Virus genome (UHGV): UHGV-1335354
DNA from: a virus
DNA length: 16,228 nt
Direction: 5' to 3' (one strand)
Of this stretch, positions 1 through 16,228 are shown piece by piece (within the stretch, counting starts at the first letter, position 1; every line of letters begins with the position of its first letter). Both the position numbers and the translations under genes were made by a program. The notes under the pieces are model-generated. The model had not been told where the DNA came from, made no database searches, and saw nothing but the letters and a program-made list of their open reading frames with translations.

Positions 1-55
1 AGAACGAGAGCTTCCCAAGCTCTATACGAGGGTTCGATTCCCTTCGCCCGCTCCA
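1..55 (+). tRNA. glyU: tRNA-Gly (anticodon CCC), 5' part cut by window edge; its 3' end is the attL side of the island
   Basis: Sequence matches the 3' two-thirds of enterobacterial tRNA-Gly(CCC) as I recall it: anticodon loop CTTCCCAAG, T-arm GGTTCGATTCC, acceptor 3' strand CGCCCGC, discriminator and CCA at 53-55. Confidence 0.9.
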
Positions 56-792: not shown

Positions 793-1113
793 TTACTTCT
801 TAATATCGCCAGTGCATTGATATTCGATAGTCACAAGTGTTTGCATACAACCAGATGAAGAAGGTTGTGAACATTGAGAAGTGAATCCACCAAAAGGCTC
901 GGCTCCTGAATATCCCCAAGCGGCACAACGCGCTTTGGCTGCATTCATGCCTTGTTGTGGATCTACAACAGGACTTTCAAACATACCGTAAGAATAACTC
1001 ATCCTAACTGTGCCGTCTGATTTGCTTCCACCAGTTGGAACGAGTTGTTTTTTTGTTGCACATCCAGAAATAATCAATGTTGAAGCAAGTAACAGCATTA
1101 AACTTTTGCGCAT
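793..1113 (-). CDS. putative lipoprotein (106 aa) with six cysteines in the mature part
   Basis: N-terminus MRKSLMLLLASTLIISGC has a signal peptide plus lipobox (I-S-G-C) typical of signal peptidase II substrates; no specific family assigned. Confidence 0.6.
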   Translation of the reverse strand: MRKSLMLLLASTLIISGCATKKQLVPTGGSKSDGTVRMSYSYGMFESPVVDPQQGMNAAKARCAAWGYSGAEPFGGFTSQCSQPSSSGCMQTLVTIEYQCTGDIKK

Positions 1114-1765: not shown

Positions 1766-2317
1766 TTACGCTTCCTGCTCTTTCTTGATACGTTGCACCG
1801 TCTGTGTGCTGACACTGAAATCTTTTGCTACGCTCCGAATTGATCCACCATTCGCGAGAGCGGCAACAATTCCCGCTCGATCAATTGCTTTTCCATTACC
1901 ACGTTTTGCTATACGCCCAGCTGCCTTAGCTGCGGCGATCCCTTCACGTTGACGCTCAAGCATCATTTCACGTTCCATTTGTGCCACTGCTGCAAGCACT
2001 GTGAGCATCATATTCCCTGCGGGAGAGTTCTTCCCTGTCTTAAAGTCTTCTTTATGGAAATGCACAGACACGCCGCGCTCTGTTAATTGCTCAACCGTTG
2101 CCAGAAGGTCGGCTGTATTACGGCAAAGGCGATCAATGCTGTGAACATGCAAAACATCACCTTCCCGCACATAGTTCATCATTGCCTCAAACTGTGGGCG
2201 CTGGGTATTCTTGCCTGACGCTTTATCTTCAAAGACTTTATCAAGAGTTACTCCAGCTAATTGACGGTCTGTGTTTTGTTGCACAGTCGATACCCTAATG
2301 TATCCAATATTAGCCAT
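1766..2317 (-). CDS. serine recombinase, small resolvase/invertase type (183 aa)
   Basis: N-terminus MANIGYIRVSTVQQNTDRQ with catalytic Ser at position 10, conserved R/D residues of the resolvase catalytic domain, C-terminal HTH (GGSIRSVAKDFSVSTQTVQRI). AGGA Shine-Dalgarno upstream. Confidence 0.85.
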   Translation of the reverse strand: MANIGYIRVSTVQQNTDRQLAGVTLDKVFEDKASGKNTQRPQFEAMMNYVREGDVLHVHSIDRLCRNTADLLATVEQLTERGVSVHFHKEDFKTGKNSPAGNMMLTVLAAVAQMEREMMLERQREGIAAAKAAGRIAKRGNGKAIDRAGIVAALANGGSIRSVAKDFSVSTQTVQRIKKEQEA

Positions 2318-2551
2318 TTTCTTTATTCCTTCTGTGTTGATTTGTGTGTAGTGATTATTGATCGTGTTGATTAGGTGTGTAAAGGACTTTTTTCACTACG
2401 AAATTCGAAGGTTTTTAGTGTGGTGATTTAGCCTGCTTTATCACTACACGTCTTGCATGAGAATCATGTAGTTACATTTTGGTAAAATTAGCAAGCTATT
2501 AAATAGTGTGTTTATTTTGAAAAAATAATTTTTTGTTGCATTAAAGGAAAC

Positions 2552-2585
2552 TTGTTCAATAAATGGTAGAACATTTATTGAGCAA
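2552..2585. promoter_or_regulatory. 34-bp palindrome (14-bp arms, 13/14 match, 6-bp spacer): candidate protein-binding or recombination site
   Basis: TTGTTCAATAAATG-gtagaa-CATTTATTGAGCAA read from the sequence, ~235 bp upstream of the serine recombinase start. Confidence 0.35.
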
Positions 2586-2940
2586 CAATTTTGCAGTGAT
2601 ACGCTATATGCCGCATTACATAAGGCTTTGCTGATGATAATGTAAAAGTGAAGAAAGTAAGAATTGCACTTTGAAGCTACTTTTCATTGCATTTTTTAGT
2701 ATGGAATTACACGGAATAAACTATGAATATTCTACGATTTACACGAGATATTCTTGCTGTTTAATTCCGGCTTTGGAGATCAGGCATTCGCAAGAATACG
2801 CTAACGCGTTGCCTGAAAAGCCATTGCACATAATAGAGGTGAGCGTATAGCGATACACTAATCATAACAACATCTTCTTACTTTTTAGTTAGTTAGTTGT
2901 TAGTAGGTTATTGTTATGCGCGCTATTAGCGCATGTATAA

Positions 2941-2989
2941 AGGTATCATTTTTATCTAAAGGGGCTTTAGACATTTTTGATACCTTTTT
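2941..2989 (+). terminator. bipartite hairpin (outer 8-bp and inner 6-bp stems) followed by a T-run; candidate rho-independent terminator or structured RNA
   Basis: AGGTATCA...CTAAAG-GGG-CTTTAG...TGATACCT followed by TTTTTC. Confidence 0.35.
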
Positions 2990-3025
2990 CTGTGCAAGAC
3001 ACTTACCAGTGTATAGTGCGGTTTC

Positions 3026-3077
3026 CCTACCTACCCAGGAAATGAGTTCCTACCTACCCAGGAAATGAGTTCCTACA
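3026..3077. repeat. 23-bp perfect tandem direct repeat, 2.3 copies (CCTACCTACCCAGGAAATGAGTT)
   Basis: Copies at 3026-3048 and 3049-3071 are identical, followed by partial copy CCTACA. Confidence 0.9.
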
Positions 3078-3084
3078 ATACTAT

Positions 3085-3106
3085 AATTAAACTACAATTA
3101 AACTAT
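3085..3106. repeat. 11-bp AT-rich tandem repeat x2 (AATTAAACTAC / AATTAAACTAT)
   Basis: Read directly from the sequence, immediately after the 23-bp repeats. Confidence 0.7.
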
Positions 3107-3239
3107 CTTTTATAAATTCTTTTATCTTTTAAAGAATAATTATAGGGATACCCGTTAGGGAGTCTTCGACTATCCCTTAATCTATTGGCATTCGCCAGAA
3201 CCTTGCACAAGTTAGACTGATGCTTGTCATAACAGATAG

Positions 3240-3287
3240 TTTTTGTTTTTTGTTTTTTGTTTTTTGTTTTTTGTTTTTTGTTTTTTG
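3240..3287. repeat. heptanucleotide microsatellite (TTTTTTG), about 7 units
   Basis: G at 3245, 3252, 3259, 3266, 3273, 3280 and 3287 with T6 between each; perfect periodicity of 7. Confidence 0.95.
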
Positions 3288-3943
3288 TTAGTAGTTAGCT
3301 GATCTATGTTCGCTTTCCGCTCACAACGAATATGTAATCTACTATGTGCAAATAGCCTACGGCTTGCGTATGGCTAATAGTCTTGCGCTGTGCGCAGAAC
3401 GATAATTAACTAACTACCATCTAACGATTGAAATTTACTTGTGCAATAACCTGAGCGTAAGCGAATGGTTGTTAGTGTCGCGTTACCCTTTGGGGATGCT
3501 AACGCATAACATGACAAAACAACCAACAACAAAAAAGAAAGAATGGTTTTTGTAGTTGAAGGTTAAATAAGATTCTACCGCTTAAATCAAGCCGTAGGCG
3601 AGCTTAACAGGGTAATGTAAGGGAAACACCTTAGCGGTAATAGATTAGCTCGTTACAGAGCTTCTGAGAACTTTGCAGGTATTTTATAAGATGTCTGAAA
3701 TCAGAGTTTATCTATCCACCATCTTTCCATCATCTGATAAATCAAAAATAAGACCCTTAAATAAGCCTCTGACGAGATAAACAACCTCTACATAAGGGAA
3801 TGTATTGTTTTTATCAAAACCCCGTCAGAGTGCGATTGAGAGCGTTTTAGACAACAGGGAAGAATTGTACCAGAGTAGGCAGCACAAAAAGCTAAGAAAA
3901 ATTATAAGAAATTGAAAATGATCAAATTTTTTATAAAAGAGGG

Positions 3944-3972
3944 TTGACAAAGCCGCCGTTATGTAGTATTGT
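3944..3972 (+). promoter_or_regulatory. candidate sigma70 promoter for the rightward small-gene operon
   Basis: TTGACA (3944-3949), 17-bp spacer, TATTGT (3967-3972); about 115 bp upstream of the first gene. Confidence 0.45.
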
Positions 3973-4088
3973 AAGTAGGGAGGGGAGAAACATCTCTCTC
4001 CATCTAAATAATCAAATCACAGAACACTGCACTTTGAGCCGTCAGGCTGCAAGGTGTGTTTTTCTTTTATCTAAATAAGGAGTTTTTT

Positions 4089-4271
4089 ATGAAATGGTAT
4101 ACACCGGAACACGTCGTAGAGGCATTTAAAAAAGGTGAGCTAACACGACATCAAGTAAGGATGAACAGGAACACAGCGCGGCGCTGTGGTTATCCAGAGC
4201 GTGAAAAATGCTTTGACGATGCACTAAAAATTATTGATGAACTGCGTAAGGCAGAAGCAGAGAAAGAATAA
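4089..4271 (+). CDS. hypothetical small protein (60 aa); ORF track start 4056 is probably too far upstream
   Basis: ATG at 4089 preceded by TAAGGAG at optimal spacing; protein MKWYTPEHVVEAFKKGELTRHQVRMNRNTARRCGYPEREKCFDDALKIIDELRKAEAEKE. Confidence 0.5.
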   Translation: MKWYTPEHVVEAFKKGELTRHQVRMNRNTARRCGYPEREKCFDDALKIIDELRKAEAEKE

Positions 4272-4294
4272 TAACAGGAGAAGGAGAAAACCAA

Positions 4295-4471
4295 ATGAAT
4301 ATTAATTTTGATTCTGCAACTTATAACGCGTTGTTAAATCGTGCAAAGGCAGAAGGGAAATCAATTCCAAAACTTGTTAATGAATTACTAATTACAGTCC
4401 TTACAAAGGAGGAACTAAATGAACCAAAACACCAAAACAATTGCCGAAGCAAAAGCGCAATGCCTCAATAA
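4295..4471 (+). CDS. unannotated small ORF (58 aa), possible ribbon-helix-helix (CopG/Arc-like) DNA-binding protein
   Basis: Hand-translated: MNINFDSATYNALLNRAKAEGKSIPKLVNELLITVLTKEELNEPKHQNNCRSKSAMPQ; GGAGAAGGAG upstream; N-terminal 40 aa resemble an RHH fold by composition; overlaps the next gene by 53 nt in another frame. Confidence 0.4.
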   Translation: MNINFDSATYNALLNRAKAEGKSIPKLVNELLITVLTKEELNEPKHQNNCRSKSAMPQ

Positions 4472-5084
4472 GAAAGATAGTAAACAAACATATGTAGTAG
4501 TTGAACAATGGCTGAAGATGTTTAAAAAGTGGTTCTCACCGTCAGGTAAGGAATACACCGCGACACTTCCAGCCGTTGAAATCTACAGTTACGTAGCTGG
4601 GTTCAATGAACAAGGGCAAGAATGTTACGCCAATCAAAAAACATTAGCTAATATTGGAATGGTTAGTGATCGTCAGGTGCGTAATATTATAAATATGTTT
4701 ATTGATATGGGTGTTCTTTCTGTAGAGGCACGGGACGGGCAAACATCACTCTATAAAGCATTACCCTTTACAGATGCACACATCACACCACCGGAAGACG
4801 TAAAAACCTCTGTAAACGTAGAACAGCCTGCACCTGAAACACAGGAACCGTTAGAAGCGACACACTCTATTGAGCAGGAAACACAGGCAGAAATCACGGA
4901 ACAATCTGATCTTTTTACATGGCTTATTTCCATAGACAGCCAAAAGCCTATGCAAGAAGAAACAGAAAATTTTATAAAACGTGCACTGACCTCGAAGAGG
5001 ATAATTCTTGAAGATGATGCTTTTAATGCACTGATGATAGCCCTGAGAAAAGAAAGTGAAATCTATGACTCAATACCATTTTAA
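4419..5084 (+). CDS. putative winged-helix/HTH DNA-binding protein (221 aa), replication-initiator-like or regulator, with acidic low-complexity C-terminal half
   Basis: AAGGAGG Shine-Dalgarno 7 nt upstream; central segment ECYANQKTLANIGMVSDRQVRNIINMFIDMGVLSV resembles HTH modules of phage/plasmid replication initiators; no Walker motif. Confidence 0.55.
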   Translation: MNQNTKTIAEAKAQCLNKKDSKQTYVVVEQWLKMFKKWFSPSGKEYTATLPAVEIYSYVAGFNEQGQECYANQKTLANIGMVSDRQVRNIINMFIDMGVLSVEARDGQTSLYKALPFTDAHITPPEDVKTSVNVEQPAPETQEPLEATHSIEQETQAEITEQSDLFTWLISIDSQKPMQEETENFIKRALTSKRIILEDDAFNALMIALRKESEIYDSIPF

Positions 5085-5096
5085 GGAGAATAAAAA

Positions 5097-5354
5097 ATGA
5101 AATACAACCTGACATTAAACAAACGAACATTCGAAATTACAGAAAGCGGCTACACACTGGCAAAACAGATCGCTGATAGCAATTATAAGCTACCCGCGAT
5201 TATCAGCTTTCAGGAGTTACCGCACAGTAAAGAACACACACAGCATTGGCTAAATCACCTAAGCCATTTTGGGGTAATTCAGTATGAAGCTGTGAATAGT
5301 CAGACGTTCCGTTTGCTCGAGGTAAACCCGTTTGAATTGTGGATGACACTGTGA
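5097..5354 (+). CDS. hypothetical protein (85 aa)
   Basis: ATG preceded by AAGGAG; part of the co-oriented operon; no family recognised. Confidence 0.5.
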   Translation: MKYNLTLNKRTFEITESGYTLAKQIADSNYKLPAIISFQELPHSKEHTQHWLNHLSHFGVIQYEAVNSQTFRLLEVNPFELWMTL

Positions 5355-5557
5355 TCATATTCGATGGCGAATTTTCACAAGAAATCTTTCTGCAATATTT
5401 ACGGGAAAGAACGGGAATGATTCTGTTTGATTCTGAGTTTTCCGGTGTGGTAGGTGAGCAATTTTTATATGCTCTTCTCGATAACCTAAGTAAACAAGGA
5501 TTATTGCAGTATACAAAAACTCATATGAAAGCATTCAGAATCGACTCTGTAGCTTAA
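5339..5557 (+). CDS. hypothetical protein (72 aa), GTG start overlapping the upstream gene
   Basis: Open frame with GTG at 5339 overlapping the preceding stop; no family recognised. Confidence 0.35.
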   Translation: MDDTVIIFDGEFSQEIFLQYLRERTGMILFDSEFSGVVGEQFLYALLDNLSKQGLLQYTKTHMKAFRIDSVA

Positions 5558-5685
5558 AACAAACAACAAACAACTATCAAACATCTTGAAGGGTGAAACA
5601 ATGGAAAGCTTAATATTTTTCTTAGTATTTATGATCGCTTCCTTTTTTAACACTGCAACAAGAAAAACAAAACGAAGGGGAAGCA

Positions 5686-6066
5686 ATGAGCAAGAAAAAA
5701 GGCAAGAAAAACGTAATAACAACTATTGGCGAAGCATGTGATCAGTATGCGTTAAACAATCCTCGCAAATATAATTATGAGCATGATGCACAACCAGGCG
5801 AGGAATTGATCTTTATACTTGAAGAACCAAGCCCAGAATTGACAGACGAAGAATTATCAATCATTCAAAGTATGGATGGTGTTTACTTCAATCCGCGCCC
5901 ACGCAAAACAACAATCATTGATAGTAGTCTTCTTAAAAGATGGCAGTGTTTAGGCTTCCAGGATATGAATCATTTTCGTGGCTACATGGCTCTTAATAGT
6001 TTGCAGTATGCAGGCGCAAGAGAGACAGAGTTACTTATGCTTGAAAGAATAAAAATAGACGATTAA
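5686..6066 (+). CDS. hypothetical protein (126 aa), lysine-rich N-terminus
   Basis: ATG preceded by GAAGGGGAAG; no family recognised. Confidence 0.5.
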   Translation: MSKKKGKKNVITTIGEACDQYALNNPRKYNYEHDAQPGEELIFILEEPSPELTDEELSIIQSMDGVYFNPRPRKTTIIDSSLLKRWQCLGFQDMNHFRGYMALNSLQYAGARETELLMLERIKIDD

Positions 6067-6107
6067 CAGCGTTGGCTGAATATAACCCTTAACAAAAGGA
6101 AAATAAA

Positions 6108-6329
6108 ATGATTAACAAAGCAATTTTAGAGACAACCACTTTTCATGATCTTAAGCTTCTTTCAGAATGTTTTATAAATATTATTGAACGTGCAAAGGAA
6201 GAGAACGATCTGGCAACTCTGGATGACGTTGTAGACAACATTGCAACTTATAAAATCCCGCTCACTATTGCTATGAAGAAAGCACGCGAAGCACAACAAA
6301 AATTAGAACAATTAGAGGAAGTGGCATAA
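6108..6329 (+). CDS. hypothetical small acidic protein (73 aa)
   Basis: ATG preceded by AAAGGAAA; stop overlaps the next start (ATAATGA). Confidence 0.5.
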   Translation: MINKAILETTTFHDLKLLSECFINIIERAKEENDLATLDDVVDNIATYKIPLTIAMKKAREAQQKLEQLEEVA

Positions 6330-6643
6330 TGAGCGAAGTTCACACCGTAACTATTCAGCTATACGATTTAATCATCGACCTTCAAAAATCTGTTAACGAA
6401 GCCATAGAAGATCCGACAGAATTTAATATAGGAAAAGCCGTTCTCAATCTTCAATCTCTACATGATGCAATGTCAATGTTAGTTGTAGCTTGTGAGGAGG
6501 CCGAAGGCGGGAAAGTTGATGCAGAAGATCTTGCAAACTTCAATCTCATGTTGGCTGATTGTAGTTGTGTTGTTCAAAGTGCAATAGAAGACTTACAGCC
6601 GCTTATTGATAACCTGTTAAGGGGTAAGCATGAGCAACTTTAA
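6329..6643 (+). CDS. hypothetical strongly acidic protein (104 aa)
   Basis: GAGGAAG Shine-Dalgarno; Asp/Glu-rich composition; translationally coupled to neighbours. Confidence 0.5.
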   Translation: MSEVHTVTIQLYDLIIDLQKSVNEAIEDPTEFNIGKAVLNLQSLHDAMSMLVVACEEAEGGKVDAEDLANFNLMLADCSCVVQSAIEDLQPLIDNLLRGKHEQL

Positions 6644-6863
6644 AACTAAGCGTGTGGAGTGCCTGGCGCTCTCTGAGATGGGCGTGTCCTGCGCCTGTTT
6701 CACCATTGGAAAGATCTATACCGGACTACTGAACACAGAGAATAGCTTGATGGTTATCACTGATGACAACGGCAACAACCAGGCGGTTGTAGTGGGCGGT
6801 GCGTGTGCTTTCGGTAGCTGGAAACTGACTACAAAGAAAAATGAAAATAGCACGAATAGCTAA
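6630..6863 (+). CDS. hypothetical small cysteine-containing protein (77 aa)
   Basis: AAGGGG upstream; overlaps the upstream stop; local GC higher than neighbours. Confidence 0.45.
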   Translation: MSNFKTKRVECLALSEMGVSCACFTIGKIYTGLLNTENSLMVITDDNGNNQAVVVGGACAFGSWKLTTKKNENSTNS

Positions 6864-6872
6864 AGATATACA

Positions 6873-6901
6873 TTGACTTTATAACAAGAATGTTATATAA
6901 T
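6873..6901 (+). promoter_or_regulatory. near-consensus sigma70 promoter with no convincing ATG-initiated ORF downstream
   Basis: TTGACT (6873-6878), exactly 17-bp spacer, TATAAT (6896-6901). Confidence 0.45.
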
Positions 6902-6956
6902 AATAAATATGCTTGGAAGATGATAAAGCAAGGATTGCATATTCTCCAATTATATC

Positions 6957-7316
6957 TTACCTCTGCAGCCTCTTATTGTCAATAAGAAAATCTAAGAGAC
7001 GGCGACCGCCACGATCGCCCATCTCTTTAAAACAGTTTTTAGAAAACATCCTCGTGTTTTTCATTGTTGGGTCTGTTCTGATTAGTTTTTCCCTTTTGGT
7101 AAGCGCGGTAGTTTCATTCCTTTTCTGCCGCTGCTTATTTTCAACAAAGAAAAGTTTTCTAAAAGCTGTTTTATAACAGCCTATACCCCTATAAGTTATT
7201 GAACGTTTCTTGGCTGGGTATATGCCTTGCGGCATAAAATCACTATTAAAATTATGTTTCCAACCCGTAGCAAGTTGAGCGTAGTTGAGTGATTCCTTGT
7301 TATCTGTTCTCGCCAT
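6957..7316 (-). CDS. possible basic protein (119 aa, Lys/Arg-rich); may be spurious
   Basis: ATG-initiated minus-strand ORF, weak and poorly spaced Shine-Dalgarno, rare codons; start codon is embedded in a palindrome; lies antisense to the orphan promoter. Confidence 0.25.
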   Translation of the reverse strand: MARTDNKESLNYAQLATGWKHNFNSDFMPQGIYPAKKRSITYRGIGCYKTAFRKLFFVENKQRQKRNETTALTKREKLIRTDPTMKNTRMFSKNCFKEMGDRGGRRLLDFLIDNKRLQR

Positions 7317-7345
7317 ACCTGATGGGCGTCAGGTTATGAACAGAT
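7302..7345. promoter_or_regulatory. nested inverted repeats (outer ATCTGTTC/GAACAGAT, inner CCTGA/TCAGG): candidate operator or RNA structure
   Basis: Read from the sequence; arms share the CAGAT/CCTGAT motif with the terminator stem at 7431-7477. Confidence 0.35.
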
Positions 7346-7430
7346 AGCGCCTTGCGCCAGTTACACATCCCTTACGGTCGGTGAATCCTAAATAGCCAAC
7401 TACCTGGTAACGGTGCATTGTATTTGAGAA

Positions 7431-7486
7431 AACAGATCAGGAAAGACTTTCCAAAGGGTCTACTCGCCTGATCTGTTCTTCTTTTT
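7431..7486 (+). terminator. long-stem hairpin followed by a T-run: candidate rho-independent terminator
   Basis: Perfect 11-bp stem AACAGATCAGG / CCTGATCTGTT with a 25-nt loop, followed by CTTCTTTTT. Confidence 0.5.
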
Positions 7487-7591
7487 AGAACATATAACAA
7501 TGACTGATCATTCTTATATGCTCTTCTCATGAAAGTATATAATCAATGTTATGCTTAATTCGAACATTAAAACCCCCCTCTAATTAATATA

Positions 7592-7619
7592 GCCAGCCTA
7601 CCCGCTGGCATATTTTTAT
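7592..7619 (+). terminator. short hairpin plus T-run, second candidate terminator before the structural-like operon
   Basis: GCCAGC-ctaccc-GCTGGC followed by ATATTTTTA. Confidence 0.35.
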
Positions 7620-7656
7620 AAGTGGAAAACAAATCTGTTATAAATGGGACCACTCC

Positions 7657-7860
7657 ATGAAAAAACAAGACATGATAATCAGTAAAGACGGGGAAACGAT
7701 GACTGTTAGTGATGAAAACATCCTTAAAGTTGCCGCACTGTTGGGAGTTACTCCCGAAAGTCTTCGCTCTACTACTGAACAATTGTTTAAATCTGCTAAT
7801 AATGCGGAAACACCCGCACAGGCTATTTTAAACCGAATCACACAACTGAAAGGAAAATAA
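7657..7860 (+). CDS. hypothetical small protein (67 aa), first gene of the structural-like operon
   Basis: ATG-initiated; predicted largely helical C-terminal half; scaffold-like role is speculation. Confidence 0.45.
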   Translation: MKKQDMIISKDGETMTVSDENILKVAALLGVTPESLRSTTEQLFKSANNAETPAQAILNRITQLKGK

Positions 7861-7865
7861 TATAT

Positions 7866-8252
7866 ATGGCTAACCCATACGGCGTTAAATTCGCCCCTGT
7901 AAACGCGAGCAATGACCTTGTGCGTTGCAAAATTATCGCCTATTCCGGCGATCCCCTGCTGCAAGACCGTTTAATCACACTGGCGGCACCACTGACAGAA
8001 GATGTTATTGTCGGTGATCTGCTGAAAGCTGATGGCACCAAAGCAACCGCCGCCGCTGATATCGCTTACGTCGCTGTAGAACCTTCGTTTGCAGGTCAGG
8101 AAAGCGTAGTGGTTGCACATCCTACTTTCGTTATTCTGGCGCGTGCTGGTATCGAATTTAACGGCATGGCAGAAGAAAGCGTGATCTCAAAACTGCAATC
8201 TATTGGTTTCGTGATCGCTGGTTATTCCGAAGCTGCAATCCCTACTACTTAA
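7866..8252 (+). CDS. possible phage head decoration-like protein (128 aa)
   Basis: Size, position directly upstream of the capsid-sized gene, and a loose pattern resemblance to lambda gpD/SHP-type decoration proteins; E. coli-like codon usage. Assignment unverified. Confidence 0.55.
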   Translation: MANPYGVKFAPVNASNDLVRCKIIAYSGDPLLQDRLITLAAPLTEDVIVGDLLKADGTKATAAADIAYVAVEPSFAGQESVVVAHPTFVILARAGIEFNGMAEESVISKLQSIGFVIAGYSEAAIPTT

Positions 8253-8270
8253 TATAAGGAAATATAAATA

Positions 8271-9305
8271 ATGAATATTCAAGAATTATTTGGTCGTCAG
8301 GCGAGCGTAGTAAGCCCATTCGAATATGAGCAAGGCTTAAACCTGCTGTTCTCTTCCCTGGAGATCTTTGATAAGCAATCTCACAGCACTAACAGTATTC
8401 TTCTGACTACTGCAATTGAAAGCTTTATGCAGATTGCAAATGAGCAAGAACCCTACGCACAAAGTCAGTGGGACTCAAGCAAGCGCGGCACCTTCTCAAA
8501 CGTAATGTTTGAAATGAAGCACCTTGCAACCATCAACAGCGTGACAAGTCGTGATCTTGAACAGTACAGCCGTAAAAATCTTTCTACTGCTGACTCTATG
8601 CTGCTGGCGATCAATGATTTTGCTAATCAGCATTACCGCTCACATGAGAACGCTGTAGAACGTGATCTGCTGCGTGCAATCCTCACGCTGAAAGTAGAAT
8701 CTCAATTTGCAGGTCAAGGTGATATTGATTTGCTGGAAGGTGACGCTAAAACCGTAGCGCCTGCAATTGACTTCACAAGCACTACCGTAAACCCTTACCG
8801 TGCACTGGCTAAGATTGTTCGTCAACAGTCTAACATTCTGGGCGAATCCCTTGCGGCTAAACGTTCCGGTGTTCTTGTGCTGGCTGCTGGCGGCGCTGCT
8901 GATGGTCTGCGTTACAACGATATGCTGAAAGATCAGGTTGTTTACTCCAGCAATGCACAGGCAAGCGCGGCAGTAACTAAGATCGTAGCTGATAACCCAG
9001 CGTATGATGCTTTCCAGCTTGCACAGGTGACTGTTATTGATGTTAGTGACTTCCCGTCAATCGTTGCAGAAATCGGTGAAAATGGTTTGGTTGTGATCCC
9101 GCTGTTCCCTGCTGATGTTCAAGCTTACGTGCTGCATACAGGCGTCGCGGTCCGTCATGCCGAACACGGTAAAGATGCGGAAACACATCACCAATATCTG
9201 ACACAGGATCAGTTTATGTTCCCGTCAGTGTGCACCGAAACGGCTTACCTGCCATTCATTCAGAAAGTAGTTGCTAAAGCGATTATCTTCTCTGAAGCAC
9301 AGTAA
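8271..9305 (+). CDS. possible major capsid protein of the lambda gpE-like family (344 aa)
   Basis: AAGGAA Shine-Dalgarno; length matches gpE (~341 aa); N-terminal segment QELF...FEYEQGLNLLF resembles the gpE N-terminus as I recall it; follows the decoration-like gene as in lambda D-E order. No alignment run. Confidence 0.6.
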   Translation: MNIQELFGRQASVVSPFEYEQGLNLLFSSLEIFDKQSHSTNSILLTTAIESFMQIANEQEPYAQSQWDSSKRGTFSNVMFEMKHLATINSVTSRDLEQYSRKNLSTADSMLLAINDFANQHYRSHENAVERDLLRAILTLKVESQFAGQGDIDLLEGDAKTVAPAIDFTSTTVNPYRALAKIVRQQSNILGESLAAKRSGVLVLAAGGAADGLRYNDMLKDQVVYSSNAQASAAVTKIVADNPAYDAFQLAQVTVIDVSDFPSIVAEIGENGLVVIPLFPADVQAYVLHTGVAVRHAEHGKDAETHHQYLTQDQFMFPSVCTETAYLPFIQKVVAKAIIFSEAQ

Positions 9306-9347
9306 GAATAATAACGCTCCAGCACGTTAAAAAATAATGCTGGCGAT

Positions 9348-9414
9348 AAAGGGCAAAAGGGATTAACTAACCTGTAAAGCAAATACAGTAACGGATCTCT
9401 TTGCCCTTTTTTCG
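9348..9414 (+). terminator. long hairpin (AAGGGCAAA ... TTTGCCCTT) followed by a T-run downstream of the capsid-like gene
   Basis: 9-bp perfect stem with ~42-nt loop then TTTTTCGTTT; an inner 6-bp inverted repeat CCAGCA/TGCTGG lies at 9318-9342. Confidence 0.4.
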
Positions 9415-9448
9415 TTTATACCGTCTATTAAATATTGAGAGAAAAATC

Positions 9449-9649
9449 ATGAGCGAACAAAACAAACAAGTAGAATTATATAAAGCAGTGCGCACACTGG
9501 CAGAAAACACCGATGAATCCATTGTAAACGTTAGCGCCTTATGCCGTTTTCTGGATGTGGATCATAATCGTGTGCGTCAATATGCACATTACCACAATGT
9601 AAGTGCAATCGCGGCTATTCAGTATGTGATGAATAACCCTGTAAAATAA
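9449..9649 (+). CDS. hypothetical small protein (66 aa); ORF track start 9401 is a TTG inside the upstream hairpin
   Basis: ATG at 9449 preceded by GAGAGAAAAATC; no family recognised. Confidence 0.45.
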   Translation: MSEQNKQVELYKAVRTLAENTDESIVNVSALCRFLDVDHNRVRQYAHYHNVSAIAAIQYVMNNPVK

Positions 9650-9667
9650 TAAAAGGAGTACCCAACA

Positions 9668-11515
9668 ATGAGTTTAGATATTTCTGTATCTACTTTAAAA
9701 AATACAGTAACCTTTGTTACCGATCATAAAAGCCTGAATAAAGCTAAAGCAGAAGTTGAAAAACTCCGTAAGCAAATGTCAGCCGTGAAAGACGTAGAAA
9801 TACGTGTTAAGACACACAAACAATCAACAGCTAAAACAAAAAAAGACGTAGACGATATTGCTAAAAAGCAAGCACAGGTAGATAAGGCAAATCTCAAAGC
9901 ACAAAAAGCGGCTCAACGTGTAGCGGCGCGAGAACAAAAAGCCCTGGCAGCACGCAAAGAGAAAGCAGAATTAAAACTGTTAGATGTTGGATCAAGTATT
10001 AGTGCAATGAATCGTCTTAATGTGTCTGAACAATACAAAGCTATTGCACAAGCTAAAGCTATTGCACACGAATATGAGAAGGGCGCTATTAGCCTGGCAC
10101 GTATGAATAGCCAAATGAAACGACTTCAACAGCAACAACGTAAGATTAACGGCAATCGTAACGCTCATGCTAAAGCTTATGCACCTGTTAAGGGTAGCGG
10201 GAGTATTGGCGGCGGTGCTGCTGCTGTTATGCTGGGCGGCTTAGGCGCTGGCGCTGCATTCTTGGCTATGAGTAAAGCAAACGAATTCGTTGCTAATAGT
10301 TTTGCCAATGCTGAGACACAAGGTGAATTATATAGCCGTGCGAAGCTGGGCGGTGTAGACGTTAACCAGATGAATAATATTGAGCAATGGGCGTATAAAA
10401 ACGGCGTTGATTCAATGATGGGCGAACAAGGGAAACGTAAATACCTCGACCAAATGAAAGATGTGCGTGAACGTGCAACCAAATCTTATGATGAGACTGA
10501 ATATGTAGTTGATAAAAAAACTGGTAAAGGGGAATGGAAGGGCGGCGATTCAGGTATTAATACTTTATTAAACGAAGGTTTCTTAACTAAGAAAGATTTA
10601 AAAGACTTCGCTAATAATCCGGCAGGTTTAATAAGTAAAGCAACACAAGGAATGGTGGCGAAAGGTTATTCTGATGCACAGGTGGGGTCACGGCTTGAAG
10701 ACCTGGGAGATGACCTTATGTTGACCTCCAAATATTGGACACGATCCGCTAAAGAAGTGGAACAATCAGCCCGTGAACAAAAAGAATCAGGACGCTGGAT
10801 AACGCAGGCACAACAGGAAAGCGTGATTAAATTCCGTGAACTGAATAATGCACTTACCGGACTTTCTGACTCACAAGGGATCGCCTTTGTTGATGGCTTT
10901 ATGAAATCTCTCGATCCTGCTGTGATTGAAGAATTTAAAAAGAGCATGGTTGCAATGCTGCCAATGTTTACCAAATTGGGCGAGGCTGTAGGGGGGCTGC
11001 TTAATGCGATCATGAAAACTATCAACTGGTTGATGAAAAATGACGAGAAGACGGCAGCTATTCAGAAGAATTTAGGTGATGCCCCTCCTTTAAGTAATGA
11101 AGGAATGAAGAAGAATTTAGATAATCTCACTCCTGATCAATATAAAGGCGCTGGCACTGCAACAACTGCACCGGATAATAGTAACTCTCTGTTTAATACT
11201 ATTAAGGGCTTTTTTGTTAATGGTGATGATTCTCCTTCTGGCGGTCAGGCTGCAATGCAATATGACGTTACAGGGCAAAACATTGCCAACCTGAAAAACA
11301 GTGCTGCACAGCAAGCTATGCAAGCTCCAGCCTACACATTTGCGCCTGTTCTCAATTTTGCACCTGAATTACAAGTTAATGCACAAGTGCCGCTAACTAT
11401 TCAGAGTGATACCGGACGATTGAGCGATTATATCGACTTCAAATCTAAAGCCTCTGCCGCTGAGTTTAGCAAGCTATTAACCCTGGGCGTTATGTCAGGC
11501 GGGTCAACCTATTAA
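9668..11515 (+). CDS. coiled-coil, glycine-rich protein (615 aa), tape-measure-like
   Basis: AAGGAG Shine-Dalgarno; N-terminal ~160 aa K/A/Q/E-rich coiled-coil-like; Gly/Ala hydrophobic segment GSGSIGGGAAAVMLGGLGAGAAFLAMS; no enzymatic motif or Walker A seen. Confidence 0.6.
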   Translation: MSLDISVSTLKNTVTFVTDHKSLNKAKAEVEKLRKQMSAVKDVEIRVKTHKQSTAKTKKDVDDIAKKQAQVDKANLKAQKAAQRVAAREQKALAARKEKAELKLLDVGSSISAMNRLNVSEQYKAIAQAKAIAHEYEKGAISLARMNSQMKRLQQQQRKINGNRNAHAKAYAPVKGSGSIGGGAAAVMLGGLGAGAAFLAMSKANEFVANSFANAETQGELYSRAKLGGVDVNQMNNIEQWAYKNGVDSMMGEQGKRKYLDQMKDVRERATKSYDETEYVVDKKTGKGEWKGGDSGINTLLNEGFLTKKDLKDFANNPAGLISKATQGMVAKGYSDAQVGSRLEDLGDDLMLTSKYWTRSAKEVEQSAREQKESGRWITQAQQESVIKFRELNNALTGLSDSQGIAFVDGFMKSLDPAVIEEFKKSMVAMLPMFTKLGEAVGGLLNAIMKTINWLMKNDEKTAAIQKNLGDAPPLSNEGMKKNLDNLTPDQYKGAGTATTAPDNSNSLFNTIKGFFVNGDDSPSGGQAAMQYDVTGQNIANLKNSAAQQAMQAPAYTFAPVLNFAPELQVNAQVPLTIQSDTGRLSDYIDFKSKASAAEFSKLLTLGVMSGGSTY

Positions 11516-11562
11516 TCATCGCTGTGGGGCTGTTTAGCCCCCTTAAATAAGGATTACAAATT

Positions 11563-12240
11563 ATGGCTTATGGTGCTTTAACCATCGGACGACCGACAGA
11601 ATCACAAGTAAACAGCACAAGTAACGATTCTAACGCGAAAGCGACGAAAGGACAGAACGGTTTCGCTATCATCACCTCTAACCTCGGCAGTGGTGCTAAT
11701 GCTGCGTATGCAGAGTATCAAGCTCTCAGCTTTGACAGCGTGGAATCGACAAAAGTTAGTCGCAATGCGGACGTAACAAGCTATGCCGTTCAGGATGGGG
11801 CTATGGTGTCCGATCACATCCAGATCAAGAACAATAAGTTTTCATTGCAAGGGCGCGTAAGTGAAACAGTATTGAAGCTTAACCCTGATATGCTTAAGAA
11901 CGCGGGTATTAACGGCAATCGTAGAATGCTTATGCTTGAATACCTAAATCAGATCATGGACTCACGCCAGCCCTTCATGTTGATAACAGAACATCGTAAT
12001 TTTGACAATGTGGTGCTGGTTGGGATTGATTACGAAGAAGAAGCCAGCGAATCATTGCTCTTTAATCTTGAATTCGAACAAATACGCCTTGTGAGCTATG
12101 CAACCACTAACGCTATTGCTACAAAGACACAGAGCAATAAATCGACAGGTGGCAGTGTTAAAACTAAGGTTAACCCGACACCACAAAAAGCACCTACGAG
12201 TACAGGTGAGGACGTTATAACGCCAGTATTTAAACAATAA
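11563..12240 (+). CDS. hypothetical protein (225 aa), last gene of the structural-like operon
   Basis: AAGGA Shine-Dalgarno; followed by a hairpin; no family recognised. Confidence 0.55.
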   Translation: MAYGALTIGRPTESQVNSTSNDSNAKATKGQNGFAIITSNLGSGANAAYAEYQALSFDSVESTKVSRNADVTSYAVQDGAMVSDHIQIKNNKFSLQGRVSETVLKLNPDMLKNAGINGNRRMLMLEYLNQIMDSRQPFMLITEHRNFDNVVLVGIDYEEEASESLLFNLEFEQIRLVSYATTNAIATKTQSNKSTGGSVKTKVNPTPQKAPTSTGEDVITPVFKQ

Positions 12241-12282
12241 CAATAGCGGTACTATAAAATGCTCCGTAACGAGATAATCCTA

Positions 12283-12333: not shown

Positions 12334-13554
12334 TTAAGCCTTAAAATCAATATTTAATTCATATCTTACTAATTCTACATATTCAGCTAATTCTTGAATG
12401 CTTGCCCCTTGTGAGTAGGTGCGAAAGGCTTCTGTTTTAGCTATCTGCTCTGTATGTCCGGTAATGGCTCCGATCCGCTGTTCAGGCACTCCGGCACGAT
12501 CAAGACAAGTGATAAACATCCCGCGCAAGCTGTGAAAGCATTGTCTATTTGTAGCGATTGGCAAGACGCTACGACGTAAACGTGAGAATGCTTGAGAATA
12601 GAAAGGGCCTTTCTTACCGTCGATTCTTTTTACTTTGTTCGAGTGAGGGAACAAATATTCACCATAATTATGATTTAAATATTCATCGACAATAATCGAT
12701 AGTCTCGAATGTATCGGAACGTGCCTGATCCCTGCTTTAGTCTTACTTTTGCTGATATAAAAACAGCGTATTCCTTCCACAGTTACAACTTCTGACTTTT
12801 TCAGGCTTGCCAGTTCGTCTAATCTGCATCCTGAAAACAAGCCCATTAAAATAATATTTCTGATCTCCGGCTCCGCTGCATCAAGTAGCTTTTGCATTTG
12901 TTCAGGTGTAAACGGTTGATAACTCTCGATTGTGCGACGTGCTTCGAGGTTATGACCGTGAAAAGGGTTACTGTCTGGTATTCCGTCATAACGGCGTTTA
13001 GCAAATTCATAGAGCGATCCTAAGCATGTAAGCCAGTTTTGACGAGATTGATCGGCTGCTCCTCGTTGCTTCTGGTCATCTAAGAATACTGTTACAAGCC
13101 GTCTGCCTATTTTCTCAATATGAATATCATCTTTCTGAATGCTTTGTAAAAATAGCTCAACGGCCCTTGCTGATTTCTGTAGTGTTGAGTATGAACGACG
13201 CTCTCTGTAGCATTCGGCGTATTCGTCACGTATTAGGCACAGGGAAGGCGATGCATAACCGCGTTTTACGGCTCTTTGCGTGTTTTTATTGGCCCTTGCC
13301 TCTGAATGTAAGGATTCAATAGCTTGTTGTAACCTCCTTTCGGGGTTATCAGGATTATGTTTCCGCTTTAGTTCCTCCCATTCTAATAATAGATGGTTTC
13401 TGAATCTTCTCGCCTCATTCAGATCTCGTGTAGATGTGCTTTTTCTCCACAACTTGTAAGGGTAAAGATGACGTAAGTATTTAGGAACAAAAATCTGAAA
13501 CATCCAGATCCCATCTTTTCTCTTAAATAAGTATGCTTGGCTCTTGATCGACAC
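12334..13554 (-). CDS. int: tyrosine-type site-specific integrase (406 aa), GTG start
   Basis: C-terminal catalytic-domain signature: Arg in GCRLDE, HSLRG box, ITGH, terminal Tyr region; AGAGGA Shine-Dalgarno 8 nt before GTG; lies 86 bp inside the right direct repeat. Confidence 0.9.
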   Translation of the reverse strand: MSIKSQAYLFKRKDGIWMFQIFVPKYLRHLYPYKLWRKSTSTRDLNEARRFRNHLLLEWEELKRKHNPDNPERRLQQAIESLHSEARANKNTQRAVKRGYASPSLCLIRDEYAECYRERRSYSTLQKSARAVELFLQSIQKDDIHIEKIGRRLVTVFLDDQKQRGAADQSRQNWLTCLGSLYEFAKRRYDGIPDSNPFHGHNLEARRTIESYQPFTPEQMQKLLDAAEPEIRNIILMGLFSGCRLDELASLKKSEVVTVEGIRCFYISKSKTKAGIRHVPIHSRLSIIVDEYLNHNYGEYLFPHSNKVKRIDGKKGPFYSQAFSRLRRSVLPIATNRQCFHSLRGMFITCLDRAGVPEQRIGAITGHTEQIAKTEAFRTYSQGASIQELAEYVELVRYELNIDFKA

Positions 13555-13631
13555 GATAATGATCCTCTATTATCACGTAATCAGTTACCTATGATTGATC
13601 ACAAAATCTTTATTTTACAGCAGGTTATTAT

Positions 13632-13661
13632 GGGTTTCCTCGATTCCCTTCGCCCGCTCCA
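13632..13661 (+). repeat. attR: direct repeat of the tRNA-Gly 3' end
   Basis: 13640-13661 is identical (22/22) to tRNA positions 34-55 (TCGATTCCCTTCGCCCGCTCCA); upstream GGGTT also matches with a 3-4 bp insertion. Confidence 0.85.
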
Positions 13662-13893
13662 ATTTATCTTCACCTCATCAATCTGCCATTTTTGCTGTAT
13701 CTGATTTTCTATATTATCTTAATTCAATCGCTTCAGACTTTTCGCAATCGCCGTAATACTTCCCCATTTTTTTGTAAATAAAAGCGTTTACGCAATGCAA
13801 TCCATTTGTAACAACCCAGGTAAAATACCTTATTTTCAAGTTGTTAAATAAGTGGTTATCTACGCTTTTAACAAACGATTGATGGAATATTTT

Positions 13894-15504
13894 ATGAAAG
13901 GGAAATCTGCATTAACTCTTCTGCTCGCTGGTATATTTTCGTGCGGCACATGCCAGGCGACAGGGGCAGAAGTGACGAGTGAATCTGTATTTAACATTCT
14001 TAATTCCACGGGGGCAGCAACTGATAAAAGTTATTTATCGTTAAATCCAGATAAGTATCCTAATTATCGTCTTCTGATTCACTCAGCCAAATTAAAAAAT
14101 GAAATAAAGAGCCACTATACCAAAGACGAAATTCAAGGGTTGTTAACATTAACAGAAAACACACGAAAGTTAACGTTGACGGAGAAACCCTGGGGAACAT
14201 TTATTCTTGCTTCTACTTTCGAAGATGACAAAACAGCGGCAGAAACCCACTATGATGCTGTCTGGCTGAGGGATAGTTTATGGGGCTATATGGCATTAGT
14301 ATCAGATCAGGGAAATAGTGTAGCCGCAAAAAAGGTTCTGCTCACCCTGTGGGATTATATGTCTACGCCCGACCAGATTAAGCGGATGCAGGACGTCATT
14401 AGCAACCCCAAACGACTGGATGGAGTTCCCGGGCAAATGAATGCTGTGCATATCCGATTTGACAGCAACTCCCCCGTGATGGCAGATGTGCAGGAAGAAG
14501 GCAAGCCGCAGCTGTGGAACCATAAACAAAATGATGCGTTAGGTCTTTATCTTGATCTCCTTATACAAGCAATCGACACTGGTACAATTAACGCTGAAGA
14601 TTGGCAAAAAGGTGACCGATTAAAATCGGTTGCGCTGCTGATTGCTTATCTGGATAAAGCCAATTTCTATGTTATGGAAGATTCCGGAGCGTGGGAAGAA
14701 GATGCCAGATTAAACACATCTTCCGTTGCACTGGTGACCTCTGGACTGGAACGTTTGTCGAACTTACTCTCGAAGAAAGACTCTGTTTTTGTCTCTGATT
14801 TACTACGCGAAGCTAAAGCCAATGAACTGGATGAACCTCTTTCAACAACGAGGTTGAACCACCTCATAGATAAAGGTTATGAAAGAATAACGTTACAGCT
14901 TGATTTAGGGGGAGAATCCCCAGGTTATCTGGAAAAAGATAAACATTACAGAGAAGCCGATGCGGCTTTACTTAATGTTATTTATCCTGCAAATCTTTCA
15001 AAGATAAATACCAGAAGAAAAGAGCAAGTTCTAAAAATAGTTAAAAAACTAGCAGGTCCGTATGGTATAAAAAGATACGAGAAGGATAATTATCAGTCGG
15101 CAAATTTTTGGTTCAATGATATTAAAACCGATACCGATCAAAATTCACATGCAAAAAGAGAAATGAGCTTCATTCCATCAACAGAAGCAGAATGGTTTTT
15201 TGACTCATGGTATGCAAAATCAGCAGCAATTGTTTATAAAGAATCAAGAAAAGAAGAGTATTTGAATGACTCAGTGCAATTTATGAATAGATCATTGGCC
15301 CAAATAACAGGCGAGAATATGATTGGTGCAAATGGCAGGAGCGTACCAGAAATGGCACTTCCCGAAAGCTATAACTATATCCACAAGTCGGGAACTTTGC
15401 ATGAAGCGCCAAGCCCTATCATTCCGCTAAATTGGTCGAAAGCTTCAATGACTCTCATGTTGAAAGAGATGTCCAATCTTATCAATGATGAGGGAATTAA
15501 ATAG
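13894..15504 (+). CDS. secreted or lipid-anchored glycoside hydrolase family 15-like protein (glucoamylase-like); alternative starts at 13852 (GTG) and 13882
   Basis: Signal peptide MKGKSALTLLLAGIFSCGTCQA; GH15-type motifs VWLRDS and EDSGAWEED...NTSS (WEE general-acid region). Lies outside the island. Confidence 0.65.
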   Translation: MKGKSALTLLLAGIFSCGTCQATGAEVTSESVFNILNSTGAATDKSYLSLNPDKYPNYRLLIHSAKLKNEIKSHYTKDEIQGLLTLTENTRKLTLTEKPWGTFILASTFEDDKTAAETHYDAVWLRDSLWGYMALVSDQGNSVAAKKVLLTLWDYMSTPDQIKRMQDVISNPKRLDGVPGQMNAVHIRFDSNSPVMADVQEEGKPQLWNHKQNDALGLYLDLLIQAIDTGTINAEDWQKGDRLKSVALLIAYLDKANFYVMEDSGAWEEDARLNTSSVALVTSGLERLSNLLSKKDSVFVSDLLREAKANELDEPLSTTRLNHLIDKGYERITLQLDLGGESPGYLEKDKHYREADAALLNVIYPANLSKINTRRKEQVLKIVKKLAGPYGIKRYEKDNYQSANFWFNDIKTDTDQNSHAKREMSFIPSTEAEWFFDSWYAKSAAIVYKESRKEEYLNDSVQFMNRSLAQITGENMIGANGRSVPEMALPESYNYIHKSGTLHEAPSPIIPLNWSKASMTLMLKEMSNLINDEGIK

Positions 15505-15635
15505 TTTTCATAATGAGTTACAGCACAACGTTGGGTATTGACTGAGCAAGATGAACGACAAGGACAACGACATCAGCCTTATGAGGAGCAAGAAAATGAA
15601 AGCAAATTCGAAAACGATCAGAAGGATGAAAGTTA

Positions 15636-16228
15636 ATGTTCGGTCTGAGGAAAGTAAATCGAAACACTCATACGTTTGAAACCACTTTTCAAAATTGGAA
15701 AGAAAATGGCGAAGATGTTGCATTATTAATGCCCGAATTTAGTGCTAAATGGCTACCGATAGCAGAAGAGAGTGGCAGCTGGTCTGGATGGGTATTGCTT
15801 GGAGAAATATTTCCCTTAATTTCATCTGAGCTCGCTGGGATGGCTTTAATGCCAGAAACGGAAAGGTTAATAGGGGAATGGCTCAGTTTATCCAGTTCCC
15901 CGTTAAATCTAAAGCATCCTGAACTAAAATATAATCGTTTGCGCGTAGGTAAAGTATTTGATGGAGTATTGAGCCCTGCTCAACCACTAATAAGAATATG
16001 GACAGGGGAATTGAATCTTTGGTTAGATAAAGTCACAGTCTGCCAATACGGAAACGCTCCAGCGTTAGACAAAAAATCGTTATATTGCTCCATTCATTTT
16101 GTAATTGGATTTAGTAAAACATGTTACAGAAGTCTTGTTGATATTGAAGTTGGTGATGTTTTATTAATCTCAAATAATTTGGCTTATGCGGTTATTTATA
16201 ATACAAAAATTTTTGATTTAATTTATCC
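15636..16228 (+). CDS. type III secretion SctQ/SpaO-family protein (EpaO-like), 5' part; continues past the window end
   Basis: GAAGGA Shine-Dalgarno; segments WSGWVLLGE...LAGMAL and HFVIGFSKTCYRSLVDIEVGDVLLI parallel Salmonella SpaO (WSAWIKPGDW...LAGAAV; RFVIGSSDTQRSLLGRIGIGDVLLI) as recalled. Confidence 0.65.
   Translation, partial: MFGLRKVNRNTHTFETTFQNWKENGEDVALLMPEFSAKWLPIAEESGSWSGWVLLGEIFPLISSELAGMALMPETERLIGEWLSLSSSPLNLKHPELKYNRLRVGKVFDGVLSPAQPLIRIWTGELNLWLDKVTVCQYGNAPALDKKSLYCSIHFVIGFSKTCYRSLVDIEVGDVLLISNNLAYAVIYNTKIFDLIY

Follow-up and report, generated by a model that had tools for sequence, protein, structure and literature searches.

The window analysed here, a 16,228-nucleotide stretch of DNA presented as virus genome UHGV-1335354, is covered completely by the chromosome of Escherichia coli strain EC100 (99.4% identity), and contains an island of 13,606 bp, measured from repeat to repeat, at the tRNA-Gly gene glyU. 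The island includes a structural operon (positions 7657-12240) of six intact open reading frames (ORFs), all on the plus strand and separated by intergenic gaps of 5-143 nt. The initial annotation of this DNA, made from the sequence alone, had described a co-oriented capsid-like operon with ORFs at exactly these positions, and this description holds. The genes, with their counterparts in phage phi92, are:

7657-7860, plus strand: s1, 67 aa, with faint helix-turn-helix (HTH) signals, at the position of the phi92 scaffold gene gp122
7866-8252, plus strand: 128-aa probable head-decoration protein, counterpart of phi92 gp123 (130 aa) by position and size
8271-9305, plus strand: 344-aa predicted major capsid protein of divergent gpE/HK97 type, counterpart of phi92 gp124 by transitive and profile homology
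9449-9649, plus strand: s2, 66 aa according to RefSeq or 82 aa from an upstream TTG at 9401, occupying the place of phi92 gp133 and giving faint HTH signals
9668-11515, plus strand: 615-aa tape measure protein, counterpart of phi92 gp134 (659 aa), matching phrog_16051 (E 1.6e-27)
11563-12240, plus strand: 225-aa Dit-like tail-tube initiator, counterpart of phi92 gp135 (236 aa), matching PF21821 (E 4.9e-27)

The tape measure and the tube initiator can be assigned securely, on homology, as relatives of true virion proteins. The 615-aa protein, already called tape-measure-like in the initial annotation, aligns end to end with the tape measure of phage phiWec188 (25% identity, residues 3-613 against 2-648, E 4.5e-38) and also matches Phi92_gp134 (PDB 21vq_V, E 3e-20). 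Besides homology over most of its length, tape measures are expected to have an N-terminal part rich in coiled coils and a hydrophobic segment rich in Gly and Ala; in keeping with this, its N-terminal third is rich in K, A and Q, and the sequence includes GSGSIGGGAAAVMLGGLGAGAAFLAMS. The 225-aa protein, which had been left unidentified, scores 95 bits on PF21821 (curated cut-off 24.2) and is similar to Phi92_gp135 (PDB 21vq_N, E 8e-59) and to the 'tube initiator' of phage phiTE (9cuy_K, E 1.2e-9). The order of the two genes, tape measure followed by Dit, is the same in island and phage.

Taken alone, the 344-aa protein has no Pfam match at E<=0.1, the Phage_cap_E model PF03864 not being matched directly, and no phmmer match in the PDB. 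Its relatives at 43% identity match PF03864, as does the phage major capsid protein (E 3.1e-39), and a profile of its family aligns by hhalign with the phage and type-B island major capsid proteins (97.2% probability, E 3e-11, residues 12-338 against 9-337). The earlier recognition of a gpE-sized capsid-like protein is thus upheld, and on profile homology the protein is securely predicted to be a very divergent coat protein of the gpE/HK97 type. The 128-aa protein is probably a head-decoration protein: its size, its position and a local motif shared with gp123 (G.(V/L)LKAD.T.AT.A; hhalign E 0.0013, probability 18%, 44 columns) agree with the earlier label of decoration-like protein, but the homology behind that label is weak (E 1.1 against gp123 by phmmer). 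Fold searches with the coat and 128-aa proteins are suggestive at most, because the AlphaFold2 models were built on shallow alignments and are poor (pLDDT 41 and 43, respectively): the five top Foldseek matches of the coat model are coat proteins of ICP1 and phiTE (E 0.06-0.33), and the best match of the 128-aa model is to Sf14 decoration chains (E 0.3), none of them significant. The profile and structure searches that had been proposed as a check on kinship with virion proteins therefore place the coat, tape measure and tube initiator securely and the decoration protein weakly. For the two small ORFs, no similarity was found between s1 and the phi92 scaffold gp122 or between s2 and gp133 (75 aa), and the HTH signals of both are faint and inconsistent.

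All four identifiable structural proteins have their nearest phage relatives in one lineage. In a tblastn search of 50,697 phage records, the tape measure and Dit-like genes were found next to each other in Stephanstirmvirinae (Phapecoctavirus, and Justusliebigvirus phi92), which are virulent myophages of E. coli and Klebsiella with genomes of ~150 kb. The gene order of phi92 is scaffold (gp122), decoration (gp123), major capsid protein (gp124, 333 aa), ~5 kb of genes for connectors, sheath, tube and chaperones, all missing from the island, then gp133, tape measure (gp134) and tube initiator (gp135). Judged by homology and gene order, the island appears to carry diverged copies of two short pieces of this virion module (PDB 21uy, 21vq), with the order kept and the phi92/Phapecoctavirus lineage as the putative source; phi92-like phages possess complete virion, replication and lysis gene sets, whereas the island has only strongly diverged gp123-, gp124-, gp134- and gp135-like genes. 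The Dit-like protein of the window is 49-52% identical to the phage copies, and the range across the E. coli islands is 49-61%. The complete-genome relatives of the structural genes are virulent Stephanstirmvirinae only (25-61% amino-acid identity), and not complete prophages from which adjacent terminase and portal genes had merely been deleted here, a possibility that had been raised at the outset. Nucleotide searches of phages with the operon and with the island's non-coding region gave no matches, so the phage link exists at the protein level only, apart from one 18-mer described below. A direct tblastn search of phages with the window coat protein also gave no match; the link between coat and phage required the type-B island alleles and profile comparison. 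The Dit-like protein of a Cronobacter turicensis island (L009 13251-13934) is 76% identical to phi92 gp135, against 49-61% for the E. coli island copies, suggesting that islands and phages have exchanged genes recently.

In Pfam and PHROG scans, none of the island ORFs matched a family of terminases (small terminase included), portals, proteases, head-tail connectors, sheaths, tubes or lysis proteins, and no Walker A motif occurs in any real ORF of the island, so that the absence of terminase, portal, prohead protease, tail tube, lysis genes and Walker A motif reported in the initial annotation stands; a PADLOC scan found no defence families. The host-like codon usage that had been attributed to the operon is incorrect: the GC content of the operon is 43.4% (32-44% at third codon positions), compared with 51-54% for the flanking host genes, 40.6% for the island and 37.4% for phi92.

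The boundaries of the island are defined by the following features:

1-55, plus strand: 3' part of tRNA-Gly (glyU), RefSeq tRNA at L001 5982-6055 (position 1 of the window is L001 6001); Rfam tRNA 34.9 bits, 5' truncated
34-55: attL core, 22 bp, identical to attR (exact direct repeat D7)
102-119 and 13575-13592 (89% copy): candidate integrase arm-type sites, 18-nt repeat D17, ~47 nt inside each att core
12334-13554, minus strand: tyrosine integrase with DUF6538 and Phage_integrase domains (PF00589, E 1.1e-12; PF20172, E 2e-9; phrog_1, E 1.4e-38)
13640-13661: attR core (exact direct repeat D7)

The first base of the window falls within glyU, and the tRNA is the sole Rfam match in the window. 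The sequence TCGATTCCCTTCGCCCGCTCCA, a copy of the 3' end of glyU, forms the exact 22-bp direct repeat at 34-55 and 13640-13661, in agreement with the intact att sites noted earlier. The integrase gene lies at the right end of the island, and the 18-nt repeat pair near the att cores may represent arm-type binding sites of this integrase.

The island belongs to a family and is not debris. The common layout, 12-13.6 kb in length, consists of the tRNA, cargo, a serine recombinase, a gene-free stretch of 1.7-3 kb, an early operon, a gap, the genes s1, decoration, coat, s2 and tape measure, with or without Dit, and the integrase. Many E. coli strains have it at glyU; it is found again at thrW, there with an integrase of just 33% identity, in IMG/VR proviruses and in Cronobacter turicensis, and relatives are found in Klebsiella, Enterobacter, Citrobacter, Kluyvera, Salmonella, Raoultella and Dryocola; the conserved synteny that had been proposed as a check is thus present, a compact layout having been kept at two integration sites and in several genera. 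Coat genes of the family are present in 628 of 5426 complete E. coli genomes (~12%), in up to three places per genome, and a profile of the coat family retrieved 61 cluster representatives among 1.84 billion. The family possesses two coat types that are mutually undetectable by BLAST and two tape-measure types that are 25% identical, and all combinations occur on near-identical backbones. The decoration, coat, tape measure and Dit genes are under strong purifying selection (dN/dS 0.07-0.23). Searches of E. coli genomes, IMG/VR proviruses and GTDB genomes brought up no larger relative that also has terminase or portal genes; the structural genes lie on just one long contig, L033, which shows the 5-kb spacing of the phage and belongs to a phage.

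Several variants depart from this layout. In a third architecture (L035, L039, L040), the Dit-like gene lies among the early genes, upstream of s1, decoration, coat, s2 and tape measure. Such a shift of Dit into the early region is seen in some of the relatives from Klebsiella and the genera listed with it. An island copy with a thrW-type integrase resides on the conjugative IncF plasmid pEND_Eco 19019-1 (NZ_CP126938.1) and has three IS3 insertions. The thrW elements Sp1 and Sp2 of strain Sakai were considered as family members and proved to be unrelated.

Members of the family occur, too, as free DNA of satellite size, circular or circularly permuted, as indicated by terminal overlaps, circular permutation and missing flanks. 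Two Logan contigs from independent runs, ERR10766091 (13,649 bp; L023, ERR10766091_409) and ERR11438243 (13,537 bp; L026, ERR11438243_6175), have exact 30-nt terminal overlaps, which are absent from five other contigs examined, and are circular permutations of each other at ~94% identity. Their structural operon is 93.8% identical to that of the window, and they have genes for a helicase and for an Imm-type superinfection-immunity protein (PF14373, E 1.3e-18) as well as the non-coding region, with no integrase, serine recombinase or chromosomal flanks. This T4 Imm-like gene takes the place of the segment containing integrase, att and recombinase.

Upstream of the structural operon, the island possesses a non-coding region and an early operon:

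2318-4055: conserved non-coding region, 35.6% GC, with no ORFs of at least 65 aa and no Rfam match
3944-3972, plus strand: putative sigma-70-like promoter (TTGACA-17-TATTGT, by consensus scan) ahead of the early operon
4056-6863, plus strand: early operon of small ORFs and a 221-aa HTH/replication-initiator-like protein (4419-5084; PF13730, E 1.1e-4; PHROG replication-initiator families, best E 6.8e-6)
7592-7609: terminator-like GC hairpin with a T run, 47 nt before s1

The non-coding region (1.7 kb) is 74-97% conserved across islands whose proteins diverge far more, includes a near-invariant block of ~300 nt, and is found in part in the circular relatives. It contains a 23-mer repeated 2.2 times at 3026-3076 and seven copies of TTTTTGT at 3240-3289. 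The RNAalifold covariation term of the conserved block (+0.7) is uninformative because there is too little variation. This region may function as an origin or a packaging signal, or may encode a non-coding RNA. In other variants, a 492-aa DEAD-like helicase replaces the replication-initiator-like protein of the early operon. The hairpin upstream of s1 is kept in form, not in sequence, in nine of nine aligned variants (the window, L003-L009 and L011), a pattern suggesting that the structural operon is insulated and depends on either read-through or a signal tied to the helper. Between the early and structural operons lies a gap (6864-7656) that is not conserved among variants; in the window it holds a 119-aa basic ORF (6957-7316, minus strand) that RefSeq annotates, as well as strong sigma-70-like promoters in both directions (6873-6901, plus; 6982-6954, minus).

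The only nucleotide sequence found in common between island and phage is an 18-nt motif, present in the island at two sites:

3644-3661, plus strand: site 1, ATTAGCTCGTTACAGAGC, identical to the phi92 site (L029 47786-47803, minus strand)
12261-12278, minus strand: site 2, an inverted second copy, ATTATCTCGTTACGGAGC, located after the Dit stop codon and before the shared terminator

In phi92, ATTAGCTCGTTACAGAGC occupies the margin of a divergent intergenic region of 400 bp, 5 nt upstream of the gp106A ribosome-binding site, and the motif is identical also in two phi92-like IMG/VR contigs; an exact 18-mer match would be expected by chance ~0.005 times (1.74 kb against 100 kb, both strands). Site 2 is present with 1-3 mismatches in every island locus that spans the junction of Dit and terminator, and one copy of the motif is found in the circular relatives. 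The motif core, GCTCGTTACAGAGC, is a palindrome in 10 of 14 positions, and in a plus-strand transcript site 2 would be complementary to site 1 and to the phi92 leader. A relaxed form of the motif has 78 matches in IMG/VR, of which two are phi92-like phages and 65 are in contexts unlike the island or phi92; among the latter, the ATTACATCG group carries the flank of island site 2, so that ~21 matches are island site 2, and the remaining matches are chance occurrences in unrelated phage coding sequence. The motif could be an operator, an antisense target, or a site of recombination or replication; its reading as a two-box promoter was rejected, the second site having no upstream box.

We favour, with a probability of roughly 0.6, the interpretation that the island, an integrative element, acts as a satellite of virulent phi92/Phapecoctavirus-like myophages (Stephanstirmvirinae) and builds chimeric virions. 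As predicted from sequence, its gene content has the generic traits of a satellite, namely an incomplete virion and packaging set, its own integrase and att sites, and a replication-initiator-like protein or helicase; its transfer would depend on a helper, for which the circular 13.5-kb relatives from two sequencing runs provide indirect evidence. A more detailed proposal, which we rate at slightly less than an even chance, is that of a widespread satellite family of Enterobacteriaceae that swaps coat, decoration, tape measure and tube initiator, in which the coat protein is substituted, integrative and circular lineages exist, and the 18-nt site perhaps couples regulation to a phi92-like helper.

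Upon infection by such a helper, the island would be excised and replicated through its own early module (the initiator-like HTH protein or the DEAD-like helicase), and the structural operon behind the terminator-like hairpin would be turned on late. Island coat and decoration proteins would assemble with the portal, scaffold/protease and terminase of the helper into capsids that take up island DNA and are possibly smaller, fitted to 13.6 kb rather than ~150 kb. The island tape measure and tube initiator would seed tails made of the hub, tube, sheath, baseplate and fibres of the helper, yielding chimeric tails comparable to those of Vibrio PLE, and the diversion of coat, tail and packaging capacity would lower the yield of helper phage. 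By analogy, the tail half of this mechanism would have an experimental precedent in Vibrio PLE; the head half is unlike every described system.

Several observations weigh against this interpretation. The coat protein is at most 25% identical to that of the phage, so that co-assembly with the portal and scaffold of a helper is not assured, and variants with the beta tape measure are without a Dit gene. The decoration assignment is weak, and the models of both head proteins are poor (pLDDT 41 for the coat, 43 for the 128-aa protein). No mimic of a pac or cos site was found, and the non-coding DNA of the island has no extended similarity to phage; the ends of the phi92 genome are 343-bp direct terminal repeats. 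Finally, the circular contigs could be plasmid-like episomes rather than packaged DNA.

Homologs at 25-50% identity could also co-assemble non-productively with helper proteins, and the element might then be an anti-phage defence island, itself unpackaged, whose diverged virion proteins act as dominant-negative decoys that poison the assembly of phi92-like phages. The shuffling of coat and tape-measure alleles would fit an arms race, the circular relatives encode the Imm-type superinfection-immunity protein (PF14373), and factors encoded by PLE are known to inhibit tail assembly of ICP1 (bioRxiv 10.1101/2025.01.29.635557). We nevertheless regard this explanation as improbable, since PADLOC gave no matches and the maintenance of four full-length genes under strong purifying selection, together with an integrase, att sites, a replication module and circular forms, fits a mobile element that needs working virion parts. 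The decoy function overlaps with that of a satellite, and known satellites do both.

It is far less credible that the island is the decayed remnant of a temperate phage akin to the phi92-like phages, from which the terminase, portal and most tail genes have been lost. Phage-derived structural genes near an integrase at a tRNA gene, and the IncF plasmid copy riddled with IS3 elements, might be expected of such a remnant, but a single minimal set of genes, in one order, recurs at both att sites, alongside either of two integrase types, across several genera and in ~12% of E. coli genomes; every ORF is intact, and dN/dS lies at 0.07-0.23; and searches of E. coli genomes, IMG/VR proviruses and GTDB genomes for larger relatives that retain terminase or portal genes returned only the phage contig L033. 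The initial annotation had argued against simple decay on the grounds of intact att sites and compact organization, and synteny, selection and distribution now bear out that argument. Equally remote is a plasmid-like episome or a particle system with a purpose unrelated to helper-phage parasitism, because, although the circular integrase-less 13.5-kb forms have their own helicase, a tape measure and tube initiator have no known role where tube, sheath and hub are absent, and a coat protein cannot package DNA where portal and terminase are absent.

Among described satellites, the nearest analogue of the island appears to be Vibrio PLE. All Vibrio PLEs encode a tape measure, TAC and baseplate hub (20-41% identical to those of ICP1) and form chimeric tails; their tape measures fall into two sequence groups with <25% identity, and the tape measure found in PLE particles is that of PLE, their tails being shorter, with deletion of tmp reducing transduction by 96-99.9% (bioRxiv 10.1101/2025.01.29.635557). 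Both PLE and the island are tied to a virulent myophage whose coat protein is of the gpE type, both have their own tape measure and baseplate or tube-initiating protein (20% and 41% identical to those of the phage in PLE, ~25% and 49-61% in the island), and both have two tape-measure groups, a similar size and neither terminase nor portal. PLE, however, has no coat or decoration protein of its own and reshapes the helper coat with the external scaffold TcaP, whereas the island has its own coat and decoration. PLE integrates by means of a large serine recombinase and has TcaP, NixI, LidI and RepA as its marker genes. The island has a tyrosine integrase that acts at tRNA genes and a host among the Enterobacteriaceae, in contrast to the Vibrio host of PLE, the comparison being with the description of PLE, not with its sequence.

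The capsid-forming PICIs (cf-PICIs) of Enterobacteriaceae resemble the island in being integrative and in encoding their own HK97-fold coat, with the helper supplying the rest. Their genes for head formation and packaging are complete (portal, protease, head-tail connectors, small terminase), only tails being borrowed; the island has none of these, but has tail-core genes. The EPIPs of Mycolicibacterium are likewise small satellites, reported to have a major capsid protein and a tape measure, but add a small terminase, head-tail adaptor and stopper, scaffold and serine integrase, and have a prophage siphovirus as helper (bioRxiv 10.64898/2025.12.02.691453); their hosts are unrelated to those of the island and their sequences probably so, the distinction being drawn by description. 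The same preprint, of December 2025, regards tape measures as otherwise unknown in satellites besides its EPIPs (bioRxiv 10.64898/2025.12.02.691453). P4-like satellites share with the island a size of ~11-13 kb, enterobacterial hosts and integration at tRNA genes by a tyrosine integrase, but P4 reshapes the helper coat via Sid and Psu and encodes no coat, tape measure or tube initiator; the Pfam and PHROG scans found no matches to Sid, Psu, Delta or primase families in the island ORFs. In summary of head formation, PLE, P4 and the SaPIs reshape the helper coat and cf-PICIs bring a whole head, whereas the island brings coat and decoration only. The mismatch with the P4 (Sid/Psu) and capsid-forming PICI layouts that had been pointed out initially is accordingly real, none of their families being matched. 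The suggestion of an undescribed satellite type holds for the gene set, which is unlike those of P4, PICIs and cf-PICIs, but not for a tape measure and hub occurring on a satellite, which has a precedent in the Vibrio PLEs. No published description of the island family was found in full-text searches of the literature, in which strain papers name just a generic 'GI-glyU'. If the satellite interpretation is right, as we think somewhat probable, what is new here is the combination of virion genes in a satellite, and the helper lineage.

Phages of the Phapecoctavirus and phi92-like types are often isolated on E. coli. Should the proposal be true, one E. coli genome in eight would contain a satellite directed against phi92-like phages, with effects on host range, phage yield and gene transfer. 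With the island, E. coli would also have its first equivalent of the PLE-ICP1 system, a virulent phage with its satellite, and the island would be the first satellite to provide a coat protein without portal, protease or terminase, so that acceptance of a foreign coat by the portal, scaffold and motor of a helper could be tested; the shuffled coat and tape-measure alleles would offer a natural series for helper specificity.

Two further genes lie near the left end of the island:

793-1113, minus strand: YecR-family lipoprotein, cargo (PF13992, E 1.8e-23)
1766-2317, minus strand: small serine recombinase of resolvase/invertase type, a core gene of the family (PF00239, E 1.1e-38)

The lipoprotein gene is missing from some variants (for example, island locus L005). 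The serine recombinase is 99-100% identical in many islands that differ by up to 50% in other genes; it is also found in some, not all, of the islands with a thrW-type integrase, and is absent from the circular forms. It has a weak similarity to the 'DNA invertase' gp53 of phi92 (30% identity over 87 aa, E 0.002), and no inversion of the adjoining region was seen among the variants compared. To the right of the island, the flank (13852-16228) is where the ETT2 type III secretion island ends; there a secreted GH15 glucoamylase-like gene is followed by frameshifted type III secretion genes of the degraded ETT2 cluster.

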